A stretch of DNA of 10,091 nt from Bdellovibrionota bacterium FG-2 (GCA_051382305.1 JBBCAV010000196.1:1-10091), one strand, 5' to 3'; numbered from the stretch's first letter, positions 2 through 10,091 are shown. Numbers and translations are program-made. Notes: generated by a model not told the origin, from the letters alone.

Positions 2-3000
2 TATACCACCCCTGGTGCGGTTGCTTACGTGGACTTTAGCGTTAACGAAGTTCCCAATGTGTCTTCGCCGCTTGAATACTACGGTCTGGAGCAATGTTTT
101 AGAGGTTTTACGGAGCGTCTCGCCATTGAGATTGATCAGCGTCACAAAAATAACCTGTTTAGCTTAGGTTTTACTCAGAAAACAACTTATGCGAGCAGTC
201 TTGAAGCCGGCTGTTCGGACCTCTATTCTTCGACCGGTCAGGCGAACTTTACTTTCCAAGAACGGATCGCCTTTCAAGAATACGTTCGTAAGAGTGGCGA
301 TGCCGAAAAACCGATGCGCTCCATCCCCTTTGATGCACAGAAGAAGCTTGGGTTTGGCTTGTTCACCGGTGAAAAACTCAATCCTGACCAATACGGTAAC
401 ATCGATAAGGACGGGACCCGTACTGCATTGGGCGAGATTTTTGATCTTCAAAACGGCAAGCAAATTACCTACGTCCTAGCGGGCGTTCCTGAAGAGGAGC
501 CTGCTCGCAGTACCATCATCAAAGCTACTCGCGATGTCGTTGCGGATATTAACGTCGGCTATCGCAAAGCGTTTGCAGGCACAACGTTGGAGCGTAAAGA
601 AGACGTGGTTGTTCTCAAAATTGAGGGCGAGGATATTGAATCTCGTCAGCTTGGTGATTTGGATCGCAACTACATTTATTACATTCCTAAGCAAACCAGC
701 TCCGGAGTCATTGGACTCGGTGGAGCGCACGCAAATCCGCGCACTGGAGAAGTGATCGCGGCTTCCGTATTTATCTACGGCGGCAATATCATCGGCGCGG
801 TGGATTCGATGAAGAAACGTGCGAAAGCTGAAAAAGCCTATAACAAACTTGTTGCAGTCAAAACTCCAAGCACCCCCTCCAGCGCGAGTCATGAAGTGAA
901 CCCCACACTTCCAGGCGCCGTGCTCGGGCTTAATGGAGGTGCTCCGGCTTCTTTTGTGGGCGCGAAGCTGCTCATGAAAGCAGTCGAAGAGCAATATGGA
1001 CCTTCCTCAGTTTCACTGCTGGGGGATTTGGGTAACAAGATGACAAATCTTCGCTCGGGTTCAAAAGTGGACTTTAGTTCGGCGCTCGGTGCGATCATGA
1101 AAAATCCCACCTTAGCAGAAGCTCGAGGCTTTAGTTTGATGAAGGGCTTTGATGAAGCTAGAAAACGCGGAGTCGTGGGTAATGAGCGCTTGACGACCAA
1201 CTTCGTTAACGAATCGCTCGCCACATCGTTTAAGACTCTTGCTCCTGAAGCCGCCCGTCAGAAGGCGATTAGCGGAGTCCTCGAGCGCCTCGAGAAGGCA
1301 CATTATTGTGCCTATGATGCGAGTCAAGTTGCGGTCTCTCCTCAAGCCATTGAAGACATGAGTGACTTGGATGCGGCCATGGCGCTTTATCGGCCAACCC
1401 TTGCGCACGAAATTGGGCATAACTTGGGTTTAAGACACAATTTTATCGGATCCTTCGATAAAGATAACTTCAAGTTCGAGGCTTCTGAAAAGACTCCTCG
1501 AACTTACTCCTCTGTCATGGACTATCTCGTCGATGATATGGAGACCTATGATGGCCTGGGCCCTCAAGACGTTTCAGCTTTGCGGGCGGCTTACGCAGGT
1601 CTTTTGGAGTTAACACCTGATGCGGCCAAAGCGGCAGCTTCTGCTAAGAACCCTGTTCCTCTGGTCTCGGGTAAGTACGTCAGTCTCGAAGACTATAAAA
1701 CTCTTCTGGGAATTAATTCTTGGATTGGGCTGACTCCTAACGCGATGGAGAAGGCTCCTTTGAAGAAGTACATGTTCTGTACCGATGAAGATGCAGGGGA
1801 ATCACCTACTTGCTATCGCTTCGATAAGGGTACGACCCCGAGTGAAGTTGTGGATTACTACATTCATCAGTATCAGAGTCTCTATTCTCTTACGAACTTT
1901 GCTGGGGATCGCCTTGAGTTCCCTTATTATCGAGTCGGTGCCTATATCGGAAGAATCTTTGGAATCTTCACTCCGATTCGTCAGTTCATGGAAGAAGGGA
2001 TTTTCCAGGCGATTAGTGGTGCCGACCAAGAGACGGTTGGGCCCTACATTGACGCCGCAGTGAAGAGCTTGTTCTTCCTTCAGTCGGTGGTCAGAACGCC
2101 GGATGCGCCGGCTTCGATGAAGCCCGAAGATCGCTTTGTCACATTGACCGGAGAAGATAAAACCCAAATTAGGGTTGAGCGAAAATGGCTCAAAGACATG
2201 AGCGCGGATTCAAATTCTGAGCGAATCGATATCCGCGGTATTGAATTTGATAAAATGATCGCCCTGATTCTCTTGACGGAACGTGAGATGGGTTTTGCGC
2301 GCTACGAGCGAGTTTCGCTCAGAATTTCGTTCCCCCAATTTGAACAGATGCTCATTGGTAAAGAGGAGAGCCCTCTCTCTTATCCGACCATCGGGCTGTT
2401 GAATGAGCTCTTTTCTGACAGTGTGACTGCCGGAGCTTTGAGTGACGGAAAACTCGTGCAGTTGCCGGGTCAGTTCAAAGTTGAAACCAGCGAAAGCATG
2501 CGCATGTACGCGGTCTTGGGTGCGATGTTGAGCCTCGATGTTTCTGGTCTGGAGAGTTCATCGAACCTCTCTGCCCTTTTCAGAGTGAAGAGCGCGACCA
2601 CGCCACCTAAAGGAGTGACCGCGCTACTTGAACCGGGCCTCGCTTCAAAGACGAACCGCTCTGACCTTAGGCTTTTTGCGATGGACTCTGCGGTCGCAGC
2701 CAAAGCCTTGGTTGATCAGGCTTACGCCGGTCAGGTTGTCGAGGAGAACAGTGCGTTGGTCACGACCTTAACAGCCTATCTTTTGGATAATTTTGCTGCA
2801 GCTTCGGCAAAGGCTCCCTCTGCAAAGGCTCAGCTTAAGCAAAAGCAAAAGGAGAAGGCGTTTAACCTGCAACTCTCCAAGCTCCCTGAAAGTGTCGGTC
2901 CACGTAAGGTGGCTGAGATCCAGGGGATGGTCCAGCAGGTGCTGGTGTTGGTGGCAAAACTTGAGTTGGCGAAGACAAAGCTTTCAGGTGAAGCCCTTCT

Positions 3001-3226
3001 TGCTCAAATTACCCAGACCAAGGATCTCTTAGAGTCTGTAGCCAAGGGTACCCCCCTGATCGGGAGTGTATTGGAGGCAATCACAGGCGAGCAGGTCGGA
3101 ATGGAACTCTACGATCAGGTCAAGCCAGACGGGGTTATTGCATCATCCCGGGGTATGATCTTCTCGAATGCCAAGACCTTGAGTGATCTCTTCTACATGA
3201 GTCACCCTAAGGAGGCCTCAAATTAG
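2..3226 (+). CDS. Large zinc-dependent metalloprotease, Met-zincin (DUF4953/EcxA-like) family; 5'-truncated by the window edge
   Basis: Extended zinc motif HEIGHNLGLRH (HExxHxxGxxH, nt 1406-1438), Met-turn SSVMDY (nt 1508-1525), upstream 'NPRTGEVIAA' and downstream 'FCTDED..CYRFDKG' segments typical of this family. The frame is open from nt 2 (YTTPGAVAY then V at 29), so the GTG at 29 is probably not the true start. Stop TAG ends at 3226. Confidence 0.85.
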   Translation, partial: YTTPGAVAYVDFSVNEVPNVSSPLEYYGLEQCFRGFTERLAIEIDQRHKNNLFSLGFTQKTTYASSLEAGCSDLYSSTGQANFTFQERIAFQEYVRKSGDAEKPMRSIPFDAQKKLGFGLFTGEKLNPDQYGNIDKDGTRTALGEIFDLQNGKQITYVLAGVPEEEPARSTIIKATRDVVADINVGYRKAFAGTTLERKEDVVVLKIEGEDIESRQLGDLDRNYIYYIPKQTSSGVIGLGGAHANPRTGEVIAASVFIYGGNIIGAVDSMKKRAKAEKAYNKLVAVKTPSTPSSASHEVNPTLPGAVLGLNGGAPASFVGAKLLMKAVEEQYGPSSVSLLGDLGNKMTNLRSGSKVDFSSALGAIMKNPTLAEARGFSLMKGFDEARKRGVVGNERLTTNFVNESLATSFKTLAPEAARQKAISGVLERLEKAHYCAYDASQVAVSPQAIEDMSDLDAAMALYRPTLAHEIGHNLGLRHNFIGSFDKDNFKFEASEKTPRTYSSVMDYLVDDMETYDGLGPQDVSALRAAYAGLLELTPDAAKAAASAKNPVPLVSGKYVSLEDYKTLLGINSWIGLTPNAMEKAPLKKYMFCTDEDAGESPTCYRFDKGTTPSEVVDYYIHQYQSLYSLTNFAGDRLEFPYYRVGAYIGRIFGIFTPIRQFMEEGIFQAISGADQETVGPYIDAAVKSLFFLQSVVRTPDAPASMKPEDRFVTLTGEDKTQIRVERKWLKDMSADSNSERIDIRGIEFDKMIALILLTEREMGFARYERVSLRISFPQFEQMLIGKEESPLSYPTIGLLNELFSDSVTAGALSDGKLVQLPGQFKVETSESMRMYAVLGAMLSLDVSGLESSSNLSALFRVKSATTPPKGVTALLEPGLASKTNRSDLRLFAMDSAVAAKALVDQAYAGQVVEENSALVTTLTAYLLDNFAAASAKAPSAKAQLKQKQKEKAFNLQLSKLPESVGPRKVAEIQGMVQQVLVLVAKLELAKTKLSGEALLAQITQTKDLLESVAKGTPLIGSVLEAITGEQVGMELYDQVKPDGVIASSRGMIFSNAKTLSDLFYMSHPKEASN

Positions 3227-3267
3227 CTGTTTTCCTCTGGCGGAAAATCGACTAAGTTACTGCTTCT

Positions 3268-4152
3268 ATGAAAAGTAACGAAGTTGAGTCGATTGCTCTA
3301 CTAAAGAAGAAATATGCTGCCTTCGGAATCTCCGCCCCCTCCCTTCACATCGTGTTGGGATCAGGATTAGGAGTCGCATTTGAGACTACTGACGCGCCGA
3401 AGGAGTGGAATCTTCGAGGAGAAATAGGCTTCGGAGAGCTCCCCGGCCTGAAGGCGGCGACGGTTCCTGGTCACAGCGGGATCTTCAAGTACTACGAGCA
3501 CCGGGAAACCAAGAAGACGGTGACTTTTCAGTTGGGACGCCTTCACGGATACGAAGGGCTCCCTGCAAGGCAGGTCATTCAAACGGTGCTGTGTGCTAAA
3601 TTGGCCGGAACGGAGAGATTTGTTTTGACCAACGCCGCAGGATCCCTCTCGACCAAGTTTCCAGTTGGCTCCGTGATGCTGCTTAAGGATCACGTCAACA
3701 TGACCGGACATAATCCCTTGGTGGGTCCTAATCCCGCAATACCCGGAGGCCAGGTTTTGGGACCGCGTTTTCCGGATATGAGTGAAGTCTATGAAGAAGC
3801 CATGCGAAATCGGCTCGGTGCGTGTTTTAAGAAAAACGGTTTGGTCGTCAATGAAGGCACTTATTTAGGACTTCTTGGGCCTAGTTTCGAAACTCCGGCC
3901 GAAGTTGCCTTATTCGCTCGATGGGGTTTGGATGCAGTAGGAATGTCCACCGTCTGGGAAGCCATTATTCTTCGGCACATGGGCGCAAAAATCGCAGGTC
4001 TCTCTTTGATCAGTAACTTAGGTTGTGGATTGGGCGGTTCCAAAAACCTCAATCACGAAGAGGTGCTTGAAGAGGGTAAAAAAGCCGCGGTGGGGATCGT
4101 TCAAACGTTCTTCGAATTCTCAAAGCAAGAGTTCACAACTTCTGATCGGTAA
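3268..4152 (+). CDS. punA: Purine nucleoside phosphorylase, trimeric 6-oxopurine (inosine/guanosine)-type, PunA/XapA family; in context a probable methylthioinosine/5'-deoxyinosine phosphorylase
   Basis: Motifs VLGSGLG, VPGHSG, GRLHGYEG, TNAAGS, DHVNMTGHNPLVGPN, GPRFPDMS, GPSFETPAE, VGMSTV, LISN, NHEEV. The Glu in GPSFET and the Asn in LISN correspond to the 6-oxopurine specificity residues of human PNP (Glu201/Asn243). Confidence 0.92.
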   Translation: MKSNEVESIALLKKKYAAFGISAPSLHIVLGSGLGVAFETTDAPKEWNLRGEIGFGELPGLKAATVPGHSGIFKYYEHRETKKTVTFQLGRLHGYEGLPARQVIQTVLCAKLAGTERFVLTNAAGSLSTKFPVGSVMLLKDHVNMTGHNPLVGPNPAIPGGQVLGPRFPDMSEVYEEAMRNRLGACFKKNGLVVNEGTYLGLLGPSFETPAEVALFARWGLDAVGMSTVWEAIILRHMGAKIAGLSLISNLGCGLGGSKNLNHEEVLEEGKKAAVGIVQTFFEFSKQEFTTSDR

Positions 4153-4158
4153 TTCTTC

Positions 4159-5496
4159 ATGAAGGTTTTTGATCTCGCCGTTCGCTGTGACTTCCTTTTG
4201 ACCTTAGAAGGAGGAAAGTCAGATTGTTTGCGAGATCAGGTGATTGGGATCTGTGGGTCAACGATTGATTCGGTTTTTCCTTGGGCTGACGGGTTATGGA
4301 AAACACCATGGCGCGCCAAAGAATTTATTTACGCTAAAGATCAAGTCGTCCTGCCCGGCTTAGTGAATGCTCATACTCATTTGCCGATGAGCCTGTTTCG
4401 CGGCCTTGCCGATGATCTCCCTTTTAACGACTGGCTTTATAAGGCCATTCTTCCGGCCGAAAGTAAGCAAGTGGATGCGGAATTTGTTCGAGTAGGAACA
4501 CGACTTGCGGCACTTGAGAGTATTCAAAGCGGAGTCACCACAGTCTGTGACATGTACTATTTCGAAAATATCGTGGCCGAAGAGCTCGAAAAGGCAGGGC
4601 TTCGCGCGGTGGTGGGTGAAGCAGTTACTGATTTCCCTGCCCCCGATGATAAGTTTTTGAAGGGAGAAAAGTATAAGATTCTCGCCCAACTCGTGGAACG
4701 TTATCAATCATCGAAAACCATCACTCCTTGTGTCGCCCCTCATGCTCCCTATACTTGCTCGGATGAGACGATTCAAAAAGCGGTCAAGTTCGCATCTCGG
4801 CATCAGCTGTCGCTGATGCTTCATGTTTCTGAAACTCTGCCCGAGATTCACGAGTCATTGAAAAAATACGCGAAGACTCCCGTGCAGCGTCTTCACGACT
4901 TGGGAGTCATGAGTTCCCCTCATATTTTTGCGCATTGTACCCACGTTACGGATGATGACATCGAATTGATGGCGCGTGCGCATACGGGCATCGCTTATAA
5001 TCCTGAATCCAACATGAAACTCGGCGCAGGAGTTGCGCCCTTTTCAAAACTTGTTAAAGCAGGAATTGCAGTCGGGGTCGGCACCGACGGCGCCGCCAGT
5101 AATAAGGATCTCAGTATTTTGCGCGAATGTGATACGGCTGCTAAAATTCAAAAACTCTCGCAATCCAATAACACTGCGATGACCGCAAGCGACGCTCTTC
5201 GTGCAGCCACGATTGAAGGGGCGCGCGCGTTGGGCTTGGATAAAGTAACGGGGAGCCTAGAACCTGGGAAATTCGCCGATCTTATTTGCATCGATGTTTC
5301 AACGCCTCAAATGATTCCTCATTTTGATTTGCCAAGCCTTTTGGTTTATTCCTCGGCTGGTATGGGAGTAAAAACCGTGGTCTGTCATGGGGAAATTCTA
5401 TTGGAAGAGGGCATGCCGAAGACGTTAGATTCCAAACGCATATGCGCCGATGCCCTAGCGTATCAGCAACTCATCCAAGCGAGTATCACCCTATGA
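4159..5496 (+). CDS. mtaD: Amidohydrolase-superfamily 5'-methylthioadenosine / 5'-deoxyadenosine deaminase (MtaD/DadD family)
   Basis: PGLVNAHTH (HxH metal ligands), RGLADDLP..WL..I.PAE, SGVTT..DMY, APHAPYT, HVSE, AHC, NPESNMKL, GTDGAASN, GSLEPGKFAD. It sits between a PNP and mtnA. Confidence 0.85.
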   Translation: MKVFDLAVRCDFLLTLEGGKSDCLRDQVIGICGSTIDSVFPWADGLWKTPWRAKEFIYAKDQVVLPGLVNAHTHLPMSLFRGLADDLPFNDWLYKAILPAESKQVDAEFVRVGTRLAALESIQSGVTTVCDMYYFENIVAEELEKAGLRAVVGEAVTDFPAPDDKFLKGEKYKILAQLVERYQSSKTITPCVAPHAPYTCSDETIQKAVKFASRHQLSLMLHVSETLPEIHESLKKYAKTPVQRLHDLGVMSSPHIFAHCTHVTDDDIELMARAHTGIAYNPESNMKLGAGVAPFSKLVKAGIAVGVGTDGAASNKDLSILRECDTAAKIQKLSQSNNTAMTASDALRAATIEGARALGLDKVTGSLEPGKFADLICIDVSTPQMIPHFDLPSLLVYSSAGMGVKTVVCHGEILLEEGMPKTLDSKRICADALAYQQLIQASITL

Positions 5497-6143
5497 TTGA
5501 TCTAAAAATCGCAAAAGAGATTGTCGAGATCTGTCGCCGTCTCCATGCCCGAAACATGCTGGCTTCTGCCGATGGGAACGTCAGCATTCGAATCAGTAGT
5601 AATAAAATCCTGATTACCCCCAGTGGGATCAACAAAGGCTTCATTAAACCTTCTGATCTGTCGATCATGACCTTTGGAAATCAGATTCTAGATGGCGCGC
5701 CTTCCGGAGAGCGTCTCCTACACCTTGAGGTGTACAAGCTTTGTCCTCAAGCACGCTGTGTGGTGCATGCCCACCCGCCGACTGCGGTTGCGTGGAGTGT
5801 CGCACATCCACAATTACGCGAGCTTCCGCCTCACGCGCTCTCTGAAGTGATTCTGGCCGTCGGGAGTATTCCGATTGTTCCCTACGCCCGTCCGACAACG
5901 GCAGCCGTTGCCGAAGGGGTTCGCCCTTATCTGCCTTCTCGGCGTGCGATGATTCTTGCACGTCATGGGGCCTTGAGTTGGGGCGAAACAGCAGATGAGG
6001 CATACAACGGCATGGAGCGCATCGAGCATGCGGCAACGATCCTCGCTTCAGCCGTTTCTTTAGGAGGTCTGACGGATCTTCCTGAGCCCGAGGTTCAGGC
6101 TCTGCAGGCCATGCGCGCGAAGATTGGAGATAGAACTTTATGA
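5493..6143 (+). CDS. Class II aldolase/adducin family protein (FucA-like); probable methylthioribulose-1-P / 5-deoxyribulose-1-P aldolase
   Basis: DGNVSIR, ITPSG, PSGE (catalytic Glu), HAHP and RHG zinc-binding His residues, PYARPTT. Start placed at the ATG at 5493, which forms an ATGA overlap with the deaminase stop (5494-5496); 216 aa. Confidence 0.85.
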   Translation: MIDLKIAKEIVEICRRLHARNMLASADGNVSIRISSNKILITPSGINKGFIKPSDLSIMTFGNQILDGAPSGERLLHLEVYKLCPQARCVVHAHPPTAVAWSVAHPQLRELPPHALSEVILAVGSIPIVPYARPTTAAVAEGVRPYLPSRRAMILARHGALSWGETADEAYNGMERIEHAATILASAVSLGGLTDLPEPEVQALQAMRAKIGDRTL

Positions 6144-7123
6144 GAAATCTAAATTCGATGGGGCTGCGCTATGAATCGGGCCGACTCTTGGTTTTGGATC
6201 AGACCCGCTTACCTCATGAAGAAGTATGGCTTGAATCTCGGGCTCCTGAAGACATGATTGAAATGATTCAATCCCTTCGCATCAGAGGAGCACCCCTCAT
6301 CGGAGTGGGAGCGGCTCTGGCACTTGCTCATTTTTCAATAACGGGTGTAACGAAAGCACAGTTTATAGACGCGGCTCGAAACCTACGTGCAGCAAGGCCC
6401 ACGGCCGTGAATCTGATGGCGGCCGTGGACCGCATACTTGCGGCAATGGGTCCCGGACCTTTGGAGACCGAGACAATTGTTCGATGCGCTGAAGACTTTT
6501 TCGACGAAGATGTCCGCCTTTGCGAAGGGATGGCCGCGCAGGGCGCACCGTTGATTCAAAATGGCGACAATATTCTTACTCATTGCAATACAGGCGGCTT
6601 GGCCACCGTAGGAATTGGCACTGCGCTTGGCGTGATCAGGCGCGCCCATGAAAGTGGAAAGCGACTTCATGTCTTTGTTGATGAAACCAGGCCTCTCCTT
6701 CAGGGCGCGCGCCTTACGGCATGGGAACTAGGAAAACTCAGAGTTCCTTACACCCTGATCTGTGACAATATGGCCGCTATGTTGATGAAAAAGGGCAAAA
6801 TCAATCGCATTTTTGTGGGTTCAGACCGTATCGCTGCTAACGGAGATGTTGCAAACAAGATCGGCACCTATAGTGTTGCCGTGAATGCGGCTTTTCACGG
6901 AGTCCCTTTTTATGCGGTGGCCCCGGCCACCACCGTTGATTCGAACTGCCCAACGGGCGAGCAGATCCCCATTGAAGAGAGACCTCCCGCTGAAGTTCGA
7001 AATCAATGGTCACCCCGGGAATGTAATGTCTTTAATCCGGCATTTGATGTGACGCCGATTCAGATTGTTTCAGGAGTGGTTTTGGATGATCGAATTATTC
7101 AGGGGGGGCGCTGGAAAAAATAA
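6140..7123 (+). CDS. mtnA: S-methyl-5-thioribose-1-phosphate isomerase (also 5-deoxyribose-1-P isomerase), eIF2B-like family
   Basis: LDQTRLP, IRGAPLIG, ARPTAVNL, THCNTGGLAT, DETRPLLQGARLTAWEL, GSDRIAANGDVANKIGTY, IPIEER, NPAFDVTP. ATGA overlap with the aldolase stop at 6140-6143. Confidence 0.96.
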   Translation: MRNLNSMGLRYESGRLLVLDQTRLPHEEVWLESRAPEDMIEMIQSLRIRGAPLIGVGAALALAHFSITGVTKAQFIDAARNLRAARPTAVNLMAAVDRILAAMGPGPLETETIVRCAEDFFDEDVRLCEGMAAQGAPLIQNGDNILTHCNTGGLATVGIGTALGVIRRAHESGKRLHVFVDETRPLLQGARLTAWELGKLRVPYTLICDNMAAMLMKKGKINRIFVGSDRIAANGDVANKIGTYSVAVNAAFHGVPFYAVAPATTVDSNCPTGEQIPIEERPPAEVRNQWSPRECNVFNPAFDVTPIQIVSGVVLDDRIIQGGRWKK

Positions 7124-7127
7124 GTCC

Positions 7128-7376
7128 CTAATCGATGGCCCGAATGGCGTCTTCAGTACAAACTTGAACGCAGATTTCGCATCCAATACAATCATCGGTA
7201 TCAATGACGAAGTGTTTGCTACCAAAAAAAATGGTGTCCGTCGGACACAGCGTTTGACAGGTTTTGCAGTTCGTACATTTTAGGGTGATTCGATAAATCT
7301 TAGGCGGCGCTTCGGTCTCGATTTCCCCTTCGGCGGATTCATCATCTTCGTACTCTTGTTCTTGGAGATTAGACAT
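7128..7376 (-). CDS. Small 2x[4Fe-4S] dicluster ferredoxin with an acidic N-terminal extension
   Basis: Two CxxCxxCxxxC motifs, CTNCKTCQTLCP and CIGCEICVQVCT..AI. The ATG at 7376 overlaps the last 8 nt of the upstream minus-strand gene (stop 7369-7371); 82 aa. Confidence 0.88.
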   Translation of the reverse strand: MSNLQEQEYEDDESAEGEIETEAPPKIYRITLKCTNCKTCQTLCPTDTIFFGSKHFVIDTDDCIGCEICVQVCTEDAIRAID

Positions 7377-8448
7377 CGTAAGCTTTCTGTCGGATTTGGG
7401 CGAGAACTTCTTCTCCGATTCCGACCTCACCTAACCATTCCATATGAAATGACTCAAGGTGCTCCGAAAGAACGGGGGTGTCTCGCGGGAGGCACGCAAG
7501 CGCGTCTGCCACCGACACAATCATTGCAAGTTGAAAAAGCTCAGGCTCTCCTTCTCTTAGGAAATAGGGTTCTTTGTAAAAGAAAACTGCTTTTTCAATC
7601 GGCGCCAGCAGCTCAAAAGCGGTCATATAAAGCGCGGCGAGCTCATTGTCGAGAATGGGAAATCTGCTTTTCTCAAGCGAATGGATGGCTTGCCTTTTTT
7701 TGGGGCGATAGACTTCGCAATCGGCCAAGAAAGAGGGCCAGGGCTTCTGGCCACCGGCGGTCTTTCCTGCGGGAAAAAGCTGGTCCATTAAGAGTCGGCC
7801 AAGGGGAAGAACGAGTCCCACCGCAAAAACATAGCGATCCATTTTTACCGAAGGAACCATTCGTGCAATTTCATAGGCAATTTTGCCAATGAATAGCCCC
7901 TCTTTATAAAAACCGTCGACGACTTTCTTGATCTCCTTGGATGCCCCGGAGGTCAGGAGGATGTTTAGGATCCAGTCATAGTGAAGGCCGGCATTATAGG
8001 CTTCTTCGGGGTGAATAAAGCTGCGTTCAAGACAAAAATCCTCGGCGGCAATGGCGAAGCGAAGTTGCTCATTTGGTTTGATCGCCATCTTTTCGCCCTG
8101 TTTTTTGGGCAAACCTGTTCCGCGACCACGATTCATTCGAGCGCTCGCCACGAGATTTCGGATGGGCCCCTTTCCAAGAAGACCCAAAATCCGAAGGATA
8201 ATCGCTTCATCATTGTCTATGCCTTCAGGGTCGTCGGCCTTCCACTGGGTCACTTTTTTTGAAAGAAAATCAAGCATGAGCAAACATTGCCCATAGGCAG
8301 GGTTCTTCTGAAATAGGGGAAGTAGGCCTTGAACCATAACGCGCTCGTCTGCTGAATGGGCGATGATATCCATGAGCGTCGAGCCCAAGCGCGAAGGCAT
8401 CAGGTAGTCCTTAATGACCTTTGAAAAAGGCTCAACCTCCGTGCTCAT
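7369..8448 (-). CDS. HDOD-like (HD-related output domain) signalling protein, degenerate
   Basis: 359-aa ORF with HDOD-like segments recognised by eye: 'ILGLLGKGPIRNLV' (cf. Ai.lLG...vrnlv), 'EEAYNAGLHYDW' and 'VFAVGLVLPLGRLLMDQLFP' (cf. af.aGLlHDiGklvl...fP), 'NELAA', and 'IEKAVFFYKEP...LAMIVSVADALA'. No HMM search was run. Confidence 0.6.
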   Translation of the reverse strand: MSTEVEPFSKVIKDYLMPSRLGSTLMDIIAHSADERVMVQGLLPLFQKNPAYGQCLLMLDFLSKKVTQWKADDPEGIDNDEAIILRILGLLGKGPIRNLVASARMNRGRGTGLPKKQGEKMAIKPNEQLRFAIAAEDFCLERSFIHPEEAYNAGLHYDWILNILLTSGASKEIKKVVDGFYKEGLFIGKIAYEIARMVPSVKMDRYVFAVGLVLPLGRLLMDQLFPAGKTAGGQKPWPSFLADCEVYRPKKRQAIHSLEKSRFPILDNELAALYMTAFELLAPIEKAVFFYKEPYFLREGEPELFQLAMIVSVADALACLPRDTPVLSEHLESFHMEWLGEVGIGEEVLAQIRQKAYDV

Positions 8449-8456
8449 CTGTCTTT

Positions 8457-8485
8457 AGATTACGGAGAGTTTCAATTGAAGTCAA
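8457..8485 (-). promoter_or_regulatory. Predicted sigma70-type promoter for the HDOD-ferredoxin genes
   Basis: Minus strand reads TTGACT (8485-8480), a 17-nt spacer, TAATCT (8462-8457), then 8 nt (AAAGACAG) to the ATG at 8448. Confidence 0.65.
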
Positions 8486-8504
8486 TGTAACATCCTCGTA
8501 TAAT
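8476..8504 (+). promoter_or_regulatory. Predicted sigma70-type promoter for the CBS-STAS genes
   Basis: TTGAAG (8476-8481), a 17-nt spacer, a perfect TATAAT (8499-8504), then 6 nt (CAAGTC) to the ATG at 8511. Confidence 0.75.
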
Positions 8505-8510
8505 CAAGTC

Positions 8511-8912
8511 ATGGAAACTACCGCCGAAGAAATCATGTCTACAGAACTCACTACCCTAAGTGAAGACGCAACACTTGAAGACGCATTAAAGACGCTTTCT
8601 CTGAAGCGAATTACGGGTGTTCCTGTGGTCGATGGAGAGGGAAAACTATTAGGAATTTGCTCGGAGTTCGATGTTCTGCTTCACGTCCGAAAACATAAGA
8701 CATTGAATGCAGGTCTTTTTCAGGAAAAAATCATTTTTTCGCGGGAACCTCAAGTGATAAAGAGGTCGACGCCTTTGAGAGAAATATTAGAAAGTTTCGT
8801 GGAGCGCAGATTTAGACGGTTGCCTGTGGTCGACGAAGAAGGTCGCTTGGTAGGGATCATTACCCGTCGTGACCTGATGCGAGTCTATTATTATAGGGCG
8901 AAGCTCTCTTGA
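8511..8912 (+). CDS. Stand-alone CBS-pair (Bateman module) protein
   Basis: Two CBS repeats, 'AEEIMS...ITGVPVVDGEGKLLGICSEFDVL' and 'FRRLPVVDEEGRLVGIITRRDLM'. The ATG at 8511 is where the domain begins; 133 aa. Confidence 0.92.
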   Translation: METTAEEIMSTELTTLSEDATLEDALKTLSLKRITGVPVVDGEGKLLGICSEFDVLLHVRKHKTLNAGLFQEKIIFSREPQVIKRSTPLREILESFVERRFRRLPVVDEEGRLVGIITRRDLMRVYYYRAKLS

Positions 8913-9706
8913 AGCTTTCGCGCGTAGTCGAAAAGAATATTGAGATTCTTCAGGCCACTGGGCCAATCACGGCGCAAGAGGCTCTCGTATTAAGGGCAGG
9001 AATTAGTAAACTTCTAGGCCTCGGGAAAAACATGCTGATCTTGGAGCTTACGGATTCCACGGGTATTGCTCTCGAAGCGCTTCAAGAACTTGCGAAGCTC
9101 AATGATTTAGCACGAGACCTAGGAGGAATGATTGCGCTTTCCGGTGTGACCCCTGAGATGAAACAGGTTATTGATAAATTCTCTATGCCTCCGCCTGTAC
9201 CTTGTTTTCGCGATCGAAATAGCGCGATGATGGCGTTTTTGAAGCCTCCTAAGGCTGGAACTGGATCGAAGGCGCCTCATTTTTCAGGGCCAGCGGTTGC
9301 AGCTAAGGCGTCGGTTACCCCTCCGCCTGCGGCACCGACGCCAGCCCCAGCAAAACCAGGAGTAGCCCCACAGGTAGCGGCAAAGCCTGGCGCAAAACCC
9401 GGAGCCCCTAAAGCGAAGGTCCCCGCAGCTCCCCAAGCGGTTTTGCCGCCGATGACGCTTGATGAAAAGGAAAAAGAGATTCTTCGTCTTCGAGAAGAGC
9501 TTCGAAAAAGAGAAGAGGGCGAATTGGGCGCTTTACGGCGTGAACTTGCGACTTTGAGGCTCGACAATGACGCGATAAAAGAACAACTCAAGAAGATGGT
9601 GTTCGTGCGAAGAAATCCTCCTGACGAGGGAGCTTATCAAAAGAAGATTCAATTGCTTGAGACGCGTGTGGTGGAATTATTGGGAAGAATCGCCGCAAAA
9701 CATTAG
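8909..9706 (+). CDS. STAS (anti-sigma-factor antagonist-like) domain, Pro/Ala/Lys-rich linker and C-terminal coiled coil
   Basis: The N-terminal ~110 aa follow the STAS pattern (ILQATGPIT...LRAGISKLL..GKNMLILELT...LARDLGGMIALSGVTPEMKQVI...CFRDRNSAMMAF). A low-complexity linker and a heptad-rich charged tail follow. The TTG start overlaps the CBS gene stop (TTGA, 8909-8912). Confidence 0.7.
   Translation: MKLSRVVEKNIEILQATGPITAQEALVLRAGISKLLGLGKNMLILELTDSTGIALEALQELAKLNDLARDLGGMIALSGVTPEMKQVIDKFSMPPPVPCFRDRNSAMMAFLKPPKAGTGSKAPHFSGPAVAAKASVTPPPAAPTPAPAKPGVAPQVAAKPGAKPGAPKAKVPAAPQAVLPPMTLDEKEKEILRLREELRKREEGELGALRRELATLRLDNDAIKEQLKKMVFVRRNPPDEGAYQKKIQLLETRVVELLGRIAAKH
9350..9403 (+). repeat. 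Three AKPG peptide repeats in the Pro/Ala-rich linker
   Basis: GCAAAACCAGGA (9350-9361), GCAAAGCCTGGC (9380-9391) and GCAAAACCCGGA (9392-9403), differing only at synonymous positions. Confidence 0.7.
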
Positions 9707-9716
9707 GCGGATAGGA

Positions 9717-9985
9717 TTAGCCCGTGGAAGTTTCTCTGTCTTCCCTTATTTCTGCTTCTTCAGCGGATCTTGAAACAGGCGCCTCTCTTTTGATCTCGTC
9801 AAGATAAGCATCTAGGACTCGCTTCTCCACTTGTGTGCGAGTCCCTTGATTCAAGGGATGAGCGATGTCTTTAAAGGTGCCATCTTTTCGACGTTTGCTC
9901 GGCATGGCAACAAAGAGTCCGGCGTTGCCGCTGATAATTTTGAGATCGCGAATAACAAAACAATCATCCAAAACAATGGTGATGT
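9717..9985 (-). pseudogene. spoVG: spoVG (nucleic-acid-binding regulator), 3' part only; native N-terminus apparently separated by an insertion
   Basis: ITIVLDDCFVIRDLKIISGNAGLFVAMPSKRRKDGTFKDIAHPLNQ.TR is a clear SpoVG signature. The usual ~18-aa start (M.IT.V.v.......LKAy) is absent, and an in-frame TGA lies 8 codons upstream of the TTG at 10022. Confidence 0.75.
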
Positions 9986-10091
9986 CGGAAAATTTCAAGG
10001 AAGATGTCGCATCGGTTTTCAAGCGGCTTGATTTCTTAACTTTTCAATCTCTTTTTTTGTCTCCTTCCCTGGGTTGAGACGGACTTCGTTG
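9986..10091 (-). mobile_element. Right end of a probable IS3-family-like insertion sequence, including the last 23 codons of its transposase (10090-10019)
   Basis: The minus strand encodes NEVRLNPGKETKKEIEKLRNQAA*, which resembles the 'V.LNP....AA*' C-terminus I recall for a subgroup of IS3-family transposases. It is followed by ...TGCGACATCTTCCTTGAAATTTTCCG, resembling the terminus I recall for that subgroup. SpoVG similarity begins abruptly just after it. The boundary is 9986, or 9983 if the end is the canonical ...CA-3'. Only about 106 bp is visible. Confidence 0.6.

Follow-up and report, generated by a model that had tools for sequence, protein, structure and literature searches.

The window analyzed here is the entire 10,091-base contig C196 of the metagenome-assembled genome (MAG G000) of an uncultured Bdellovibrionota bacterium of predatory type. 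Four plus-strand open reading frames (ORFs) in its ORF listing occupy positions 3268-7123, in the order purine nucleoside phosphorylase (PNP), deaminase, aldolase, and MtnA-type isomerase. This report concerns their probable role in the disposal of 5'-methylthioadenosine (MTA) as well as 5'-deoxyadenosine, by-products of S-adenosylmethionine (SAM), via the dihydroxyacetone phosphate (DHAP) shunt. The four features are:

3268..4152, plus strand: PunA-family purine nucleoside phosphorylase, 294 aa (PNP_UDP_1, NF006054)
4159..5496, plus strand: MtaD-type (TRZ/ATZ group) nucleoside deaminase, 445 aa (Amidohydro_1)
5493..6143, plus strand: class II aldolase-fold enzyme (Aldolase_II)
6140..7123, plus strand: MtnA-type isomerase, 327 aa (IF-2B, TIGR00512)

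Read from the sequence, the PNP stop codon (TAA, 4150-4152) is separated by 6 bp from the deaminase start (ATG, 4159), the deaminase stop (TGA, 5494-5496) overlaps an in-frame aldolase ATG (5493-5495) as ATGA, and the aldolase stop (TGA, 6141-6143) overlaps the MtnA start (ATG, 6140-6142) in the same manner. The original prediction, which had been made from the DNA sequence, described four co-oriented genes with this gap and these two overlaps; the ORFs and the junction reads agree with it, and its four family assignments hold in profile and structure-sequence matches. The first ATG of the aldolase frame lies at 5442; we prefer the start at 5493, since alignments with orthologues begin at residues 1-9 of that form and since, in the 5442 form, the Pfam domain does not start before residue 26. 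Their spacing suggests that the four genes are co-transcribed. A promoter and terminator scan of 3000-7600 gave counts at the level of shuffled sequence and did not indicate transcript ends. The gene order is more than chance, because the same four-gene order recurs in other Bdellovibrionota and in metagenome loci.

Enzyme families and the proposed route

The window PNP exceeds the cut-offs of the purine-nucleoside phosphorylase model NF006054 (232.5 bits, cut-off 218) and of TIGR01697 (209.8, cut-off 197.1), and falls below those of the narrower equivalog TIGR01700 (203.5 vs 293.35), the MTA phosphorylase (MTAP) model TIGR01694 (63.2 vs 274.85), and the 5'-methylthioinosine (MTI) phosphorylase model NF006599 (53 vs 223). 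Among solved structures, it matches mammalian-type PNPs best (E 8e-48), and it is 38% identical to the second PunA of its own genome. The residues aligned to human PNP S33, R84, H86, Y88, F200, E201, M219, S220, N243, and H257 are all retained, with the human numbering and residue roles as we take them to be, including that of N243 as the asparagine conferring 6-oxopurine specificity. The window PNP belongs to a group that we call operon-type, whose members score 230 bits or more to the window PNP (the next tier reaches at most 198 bits) and which is present in 59 genomes. The position aligned to human N243 is Asn in 11/11 operon-type PNPs; having kept this residue, the enzyme should refuse adenine nucleosides and would therefore need an upstream deaminase.

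Three features set the group apart: a Trp in place of human Pro223, a five-residue insertion before the LGPRFPD loop (the loop bearing human Phe159), and the motif GRLHGYEG, which are found in 11/11 operon-type and 0/9 housekeeping enzymes. In a quick tree, 58 operon-type PNPs formed one clade (SH-aLRT 100) separate from nine housekeeping PunAs, with subclades tracking host families. As for a single origin of the aldolase-linked PNPs, this tree gave six label changes, and its well-supported branches require only one. Judged by profiles, residues, and tree position, the window PNP is a trimeric, 6-oxopurine-type member of the PunA family within a distinct operon-type clade, and we propose that it would cleave MTI and 5'-deoxyinosine to hypoxanthine and the sugar-1-phosphate. 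A remodelled 5'-pocket that had lost its contact to the 5'-OH was also considered for this enzyme and fails, since the residue aligned to human His257 is retained.

The deaminase matches Amidohydro_1 with 237 bits. Its closest solved structure is 4f0r, deposited as '5-methylthioadenosine/S-adenosylhomocysteine deaminase' (E 1.3e-84), and it also matches entries 4dyk and 4gbd (E 1.2e-82), which we take to be the Pseudomonas aeruginosa enzyme. The HxH motif (H72, H74), H222/E225, H259, and D309 are invariant in 12/12 aligned orthologues. We propose that it would turn MTA and 5'-deoxyadenosine into MTI and 5'-deoxyinosine.

The aldolase-fold protein matches Aldolase_II with 159 bits, attains no NCBIfam equivalog, and scores below the cut-off of the MtnB model TIGR03328 (81.5 vs 137.05). 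Among solved structures, it is closest to 2irp (E 1.2e-21), followed by the DrdA entry 6btd (1.7e-15) and, far more weakly, human MtnB 4m6r (1.5e-7). Across 88 orthologues, S71, E73, H92, H94, and H158 show conservation of at least 97%. We propose it as a putative 5-deoxyribulose-1-phosphate/5-methylthioribulose-1-phosphate aldolase in the Ald2/DrdA role. Contig C292 of the same MAG carries another class II aldolase-fold gene (L002:1447-2139, minus strand), with 32% identity to the window aldolase; it scores under all equivalog cut-offs and adjoins rsmH, opposite a sugar-phosphate transporter gene of the major facilitator superfamily.

The fourth protein passes the equivalog TIGR00512 (370.8 bits, cut-off 279), stays below the ribose-1,5-bisphosphate isomerase model TIGR00511 (166.6 vs 314.1), and matches solved structure 1t9k (E 1.5e-76), and the motifs HCN..G.LAT and GD.ANK.GTY are kept in 79 orthologues. 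By these matches, it is an MtnA-type 5-methylthioribose-1-phosphate/5-deoxyribose-1-phosphate isomerase.

With enzymes of these families side by side, the operon is probably a deaminate-first DHAP shunt for the SAM by-products MTA and 5'-deoxyadenosine. The MtaD-type deaminase would convert the adenine nucleoside to MTI or 5'-deoxyinosine with release of ammonia, the 6-oxopurine-specific PNP would cleave this product to hypoxanthine and 5-methylthio- or 5-deoxyribose-1-phosphate, MtnA would isomerize the sugar-1-phosphate to the ribulose-1-phosphate, and the class II aldolase would split the latter into DHAP and 2-(methylthio)acetaldehyde or acetaldehyde. We infer these substrates and products from the enzyme families. 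Deaminase and PNP would together stand in for MtnP, the enzyme whose gene accompanies this aldolase-MtnA core in sister lineages. Such an operon would take 5'-deoxynucleosides to DHAP with four enzymes and without ATP.

The aldolase-MtnA core and its entry genes across Bdellovibrionota

We examined 401 Bdellovibrionota genomes; since these are related to one another, raw counts overstate the number of independent events. An aldolase orthologue occurred in 104/401 genomes (E<=1e-30). About 6 kb on each side was taken for 100 aldolase matches, comprising 87 orthologues (at least 45% identity) and 13 of the more distant matches (34-42%). MtnA adjoins the aldolase in 80/87 orthologue loci, compared with 0/13 distant-match loci. 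The 51 loci scanned for a neighbouring phosphorylase-superfamily gene divided into 41 with an MTAP-type and 10 with a PunA-type gene, and no locus among them carried both. The MTAP-type neighbours score 234-283 bits against TIGR01694 and are located downstream of MtnA, with the exception of L083, in which MTAP follows the aldolase directly without MtnA between them. Aldolase-MtnA-MTAP is the classical DHAP-shunt trio.

The original prediction had suggested a gene-neighbourhood search for clusters of PNP, deaminase, aldolase, and MtnA, and such a search recovered them: the full order is present in 9/87 aldolase loci in addition to the window, spanning five families of the phylum, and in six complete loci and one cut locus among 80 metagenome loci. 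One further genome (G193) has aldolase-MtnA-PNP without the deaminase and encodes a true MTAP elsewhere. The aldolases of MTAP-type and PNP-type loci are equally similar to the window aldolase (about 50-66% identity), and the two locus types therefore share a single orthologous core, to which either of two entry modules is joined.

Further arrangements were noted as well. On the contig of G371 that carries loci L064 and L012, deaminase, aldolase, and MtnA occur in this order with no PNP within about 4 kb upstream. In G354 (L128), a deaminase homologue (37% identity) lies divergently 1.5 kb upstream of aldolase-MtnA, and the genome also has MTAP. In genomes of family f21, a short (about 185 aa) phosphorylase-superfamily ORF that matches PNP_UDP_1 only partially (53.7 bits) is placed divergently upstream of aldolase-MtnA-MTAP (10 loci, e.g. 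L072:6759-7319).

The distribution of the two entry types was followed in whole-genome searches. The window's own genome yielded a best MTAP match of 95.9 bits (cut-off 274.85), a best MtnN match of 28 (cut-off 73.8), and no match to MtnK. None of mtnN, mtnK, and mtnP thus reached its cut-off there, and the acireductone dioxygenase (ARD) was also not found. The MAG is 85% complete, so that single absences in it are weak alone; MTAP, MtnN, and MtnK were likewise not found in a genome of the same genus (G263, 98% complete). Across ten four-gene genomes, eight of them at least 90% complete, MTAP over the cut-off was found in 0/10, MtnK in 0/10, ARD in 0/10, and MtnN over the cut-off in 1/10 (G260), while the S-adenosylhomocysteine (SAH) hydrolase AhcY was found in 10/10. 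MTAP (E<=1e-55) is present in 203/401 genomes of the phylum, yet in only 4/59 of those with an operon-type PNP, and 48/59 of the latter have neither MTAP nor MtnN over the cut-off. A hand cross-tabulation of 88 aldolase-bearing genomes gave 67 with MTAP only, 13 with the operon-type PNP only, one with both, and seven with neither.

A second and independent difference between the two groups of genomes is in purine salvage. Adenine phosphoribosyltransferase (APRT; TIGR01090) was found in 0/10 four-gene genomes (0/5 searched at E<=1e-10 and 0/5 at E<=1e-30), and an APRT-like gene was present in 28/31 MTAP-type genomes, in 14 of them above the curated cut-off. Hypoxanthine-guanine phosphoribosyltransferase (HGPRT) was detected in 5/5 genomes tested of each group. 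Family f21 offers a contrast within a single lineage: G298 has the four-gene operon with no MTAP and no APRT found, whereas eight other f21 genomes combine aldolase-MtnA-MTAP with an APRT-like gene. From these presence/absence patterns, we infer purine economy as the likely reason for an entry by deaminase and PNP, because adenine released by MTAP would be wasted in cells without APRT, whereas hypoxanthine would be recoverable via HGPRT. The link to the missing APRT would provide a testable rule for the choice of entry, namely that the purine must exit in a salvageable form.

Genes that could supply the substrates adjoin several of these loci. In 4/9 of the other four-gene loci, all from f13 genomes, a fused SAM decarboxylase-spermidine synthase gene (SpeD-SpeE; AdoMet_dc + Spermine_synth, 427-461 aa) is convergent with the operon and lies just downstream of it (L047:8469-10853, L051:2610-3995, L066:7644-9974, and L107:1030-3334), and three of these four loci also have an arginase (agmatinase)-family gene beside the operon. 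Radical SAM and Methyltransf_30 genes adjoin aldolase-MtnA-MTAP in 20 loci, mostly from families f25 and f31 (e.g. L070:5754-7501), and in several of them the radical SAM gene lies directly upstream of the aldolase in the same orientation. In the window's genus, a search for spermidine synthase found nothing in G000 and a match of only 47 bits in G263. With no convincing spermidine synthase in the genus, 5'-deoxyadenosine rather than MTA may therefore be the main substrate there.

The free-standing PNP-deaminase pair and competing readings

Comparative genomics supports the deaminate-first DHAP shunt that had originally been predicted. Its basis is the joining of the orthologous core to MTAP in 41 sister loci, the near-exclusive distribution of MTAP and the operon-type PNP, the gene content of the ten four-gene genomes, the retained 6-oxopurine asparagine, and the score of the aldolase under the MtnB cut-off.

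Several observations weigh against it. The window deaminase reached no NCBIfam equivalog cut-off (best NF006549, 427 vs 540) and is far below NF005557 (275 vs 522) and NF012037 (245 vs 779), while a second deaminase of the same genome, on contig C50, passes the '5'-deoxyadenosine deaminase' equivalog (547 vs 522 bits). The window PNP keeps His257, the 5'-OH contact of human PNP, and has no obvious adaptation to 5'-deoxy substrates. Similarity of the aldolase to the single solved DHAP-shunt aldolase is remote (6btd, as above). With regard to the purine rationale, many of the 'APRT' matches in MTAP genomes are under the curated cut-off, and APRT-like matches occur in 11/59 genomes with an operon-type PNP. 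Finally, the PNP-deaminase pair is often found away from any shunt gene. Among 48 phylum loci with an operon-type PNP away from the aldolase, 36 have an adjacent deaminase; 18 of the 48 also have deoA nearby, and 12 carry the PNP alone. A metagenome scan, with an alignment of 11 operon-type PNPs as query and the best 80 of 417 confirmed loci kept, returned the PNP-deaminase pair in 44 of these 80, 18 of them with deoA; 11 had any shunt gene, including the loci with the four-gene order. The operon-type PNP is moreover the sole PunA-type PNP in families f3 (16/16) and f16 (19/19), and the aldolase orthologue was found in 0/17 f3 and 0/20 f16 genomes (E<=1e-30). As these families have only this PunA-type PNP and no aldolase was found in them, the enzyme presumably serves general purine nucleoside breakdown there.

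The PNP-deaminase pair is thus best seen as a general module that would convert an adenine nucleoside to hypoxanthine and a sugar-1-phosphate. Some lineages, in turn, are best seen as having coupled it with the shunt core, with a second set, linked to deo genes, retained for ribonucleosides. The original prediction had foreseen neither the independent module nor the second PNP and deaminase set in a deo operon. That the operon PNP is a specialized paralogue is ruled out as a general claim by f3 and f16, which have only this PNP. In a metagenome contig (L197:6001-9130), PNP, deaminase, and MtnA follow one another, and no aldolase was matched either between these genes or after the last of them; this locus may be an aldolase-free variant or one with an unrelated cleavage enzyme.

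General purine nucleoside catabolism is one alternative, in which adenosine would be processed through inosine to hypoxanthine and ribose-1-phosphate, and the latter through ribulose-1-phosphate to DHAP and glycolaldehyde. If true, the cell would have a pentose route that needs neither a mutase nor a kinase, of benefit to a predator living on the nucleic acids of its prey. The pairing of PNP and deaminase with deoA, the status of this PNP as the sole PunA-type enzyme in f3 and f16, the 18 deoA-PNP-deaminase loci among the best 80 from metagenomes, and the retained His257 are all in line with it, as is a weak match of the aldolase to NF053831, the model of the haloarchaeal ribulose-1-phosphate aldolase (69.1 bits, cut-off 300). 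We nevertheless consider it unlikely for the window. Its own genome holds a complete deo-type operon, deoB-deoA-punA-cdd-deaminase, on contig C50 (L290:35-5207, minus strand), which encodes a phosphopentomutase (NF003766, 452 bits), then a thymidine/pyrimidine phosphorylase, a canonical PunA (NF006054, 344 bits; TIGR01700, 301.5 vs 293.35), a cytidine deaminase, and a second amidohydrolase deaminase. The genome accordingly has two parallel PNP and deaminase sets, and a deo-type cluster of this kind, in which deoA stands beside the housekeeping punA, is present in 8/8 other operon-type-PNP genomes examined (seven four-gene genomes and G193). Given its own deo-type cluster with phosphopentomutase, ordinary ribose-1-phosphate therefore has a separate route. 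An isomerase-aldolase route fits 5-deoxy- and 5-methylthioribose-1-phosphate, which cannot become 5-phosphates, and suits both. In addition, MtnA passes the cut-off of the methylthioribose-1-phosphate isomerase equivalog, the orthologous aldolase-MtnA pair is tied to MTAP-type genes in 41 loci and adjoins radical SAM or spermidine synthase genes in others, and, apart from MtnN in G260, other enzymes cleaving MTA or 5'-deoxyadenosine were not found in the four-gene genomes.

In an extended form of this idea, the MtnA-like isomerase and the aldolase would accept ribose-1-phosphate as well, taking adenosine or inosine to DHAP and glycolaldehyde without mutase or kinase; we regard this as quite improbable. 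If true, such a dual-substrate operon would parallel, in a bacterium, the ribulose-1-phosphate aldolase pathway of haloarchaea, and a predatory bacterium could burn prey nucleosides along with its own SAM waste.

It is likewise unlikely that two unrelated pairs simply abut, with PNP and deaminase serving purine salvage (or the deaminase acting on a base or on SAH) and aldolase-MtnA being fed by another enzyme. Such a division would agree with the location of PNP-deaminase apart from shunt genes in most loci, with their placement on different contigs from aldolase-MtnA in G215, with the deaminase-aldolase-MtnA arrangement of G371 in which no PNP was seen nearby, and with the breadth of the deaminase family, whose guanine, 8-oxoguanine, and other deaminase models match the window deaminase at lower scores. 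The 6-bp gap and the ATGA overlaps in the window speak against it, however, as do the conservation of the four-gene order in five families of the phylum and six to seven metagenome contigs, and the lack of an alternative entry enzyme among those sought in 9/10 four-gene genomes; with AhcY in 10/10, SAH has its own route. Canonical methionine salvage, in which the aldolase-fold protein would be an MtnB dehydratase and the pathway would continue to methionine, is very improbable: MtnB shares the fold (TIGR03328, 81.5 bits) and the metal ligands are common to both activities, but this score is under the cut-off, the aldolases among solved structures match its sequence far better than human MtnB does, and ARD was found in 0/11 genomes searched, nine of which are at least 90% complete.

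Relation to known systems and flanking genes

Two papers (PMC10986504, PMC12632272) describe, in the parts concerned, the DHAP shunt as it occurs in Rhodospirillum rubrum, Rhodopseudomonas palustris, and extraintestinal E. coli: entry is by MtnP, or by MtnN/Pfs plus MtnK, followed by MtnA and Ald2, and these 2024 and 2025 accounts state that prokaryotes use MtnP or MtnN. E. coli K-12, which is without the shunt, served as a recipient strain in PMC10986504. The window resembles this shunt in having an MtnA-type isomerase and then a class II aldolase, with DHAP and an aldehyde as the expected products; it differs in its entry, a deaminase and a PunA-family phosphorylase, from which the purine would leave as hypoxanthine and not as adenine. 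The 5-deoxyribose salvage system DrdK-DrdI-DrdA of Bacillus thuringiensis, in which some clusters have an MTAP homologue replacing the kinase (Beaudoin 2018, PMC6079011), likewise passes a sugar-1-phosphate to an isomerase and then to a class II aldolase. The window has a deaminase in addition, and none is described for Drd clusters in the portions of that paper concerned with them. Judged by its genes, the entry by deaminase and PNP is a variant of the known DHAP shunt pathway.

Deamination before phosphorolysis has precedents as well. In P. aeruginosa, an MTA deaminase is followed by an MTI phosphorylase (Guan 2011, 2012, as described in the Sekowska 2018 review, PMC6302742), and the relevant passages of this review mention deamination-first only for P. 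aeruginosa and Methanocaldococcus jannaschii. The window enzymes would likewise deaminate MTA before phosphorolysis and release hypoxanthine; the P. aeruginosa phosphorylase, in contrast, is of the MTAP family (NF006599), against whose cut-off of 223 the window PNP reaches 53. The P. aeruginosa genes are not known to share one operon with an aldolase.

The M. jannaschii route comprises DadD, an MTI/5'-deoxyinosine phosphorylase, and a methylthioribose-1-phosphate isomerase (Miller 2014, 2018, as summarized in sections of PMC6302742 and PMC6079011), and the resulting 5-deoxyribulose-1-phosphate is proposed to feed 6-deoxy-5-ketofructose-1-phosphate synthesis (PMC6079011). The proposed order of deamination, phosphorolysis, and isomerization would be the same in the window; unlike the archaeal system, the window would end in aldol cleavage. 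In M. jannaschii, the genes are dispersed and the phosphorylase belongs to the MTAP family.

In Plasmodium, adenosine deaminase acts on MTA and PNP acts on MTI, according to the part of PMC2721837 that covers this step. A general PNP that cleaves MTI, with recovery of the purine of MTA as hypoxanthine, would be common to both; the eukaryotic route is without a downstream isomerase-aldolase shunt. The Plasmodium PNP is hexameric-type, and the parasite is not known to have an APRT.

The original prediction knew of no characterized single bacterial operon of this make-up; full-text searches of the literature returned no description of a deaminase-PNP-aldolase-MtnA operon, with supplements and North 2020 outside the coverage. 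Together with the PNP-deaminase module at large, the operon points to a third entry to MTA and 5'-deoxyadenosine disposal across a bacterial phylum, and would involve a phosphorylase family not previously tied to substrates derived from these nucleosides. The assignment would also correct the annotation of genes whose present labels are a generic PNP, 'TRZ/ATZ hydrolase', or 'class II aldolase'.

The operon is flanked on both sides by genes of other families. Upstream, a plus-strand ORF (29-3226) encodes a 1065-aa protein, the sole match of which is a short one to the Met-zincin DUF4953 (38 bits); it stops 41 bp before the PNP gene and has a counterpart with 71% identity in the same-genus genome. 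Downstream, a small 4Fe-4S ferredoxin-like ORF (7128-7430, minus strand) is convergent with the MtnA stop at a distance of 4 bp and shares sequence with the end of a 359-aa ORF (7369-8448, minus strand) that has no family match. The same-genus genome keeps both the ferredoxin-like ORF (63%) and the 359-aa ORF (79%). Further along, the gene of a tandem-CBS protein (8421-8912) shares four bases with that of a STAS-domain protein (8909-9706), and a SpoVG gene (9717-10022) follows the STAS-domain gene on the opposite strand.

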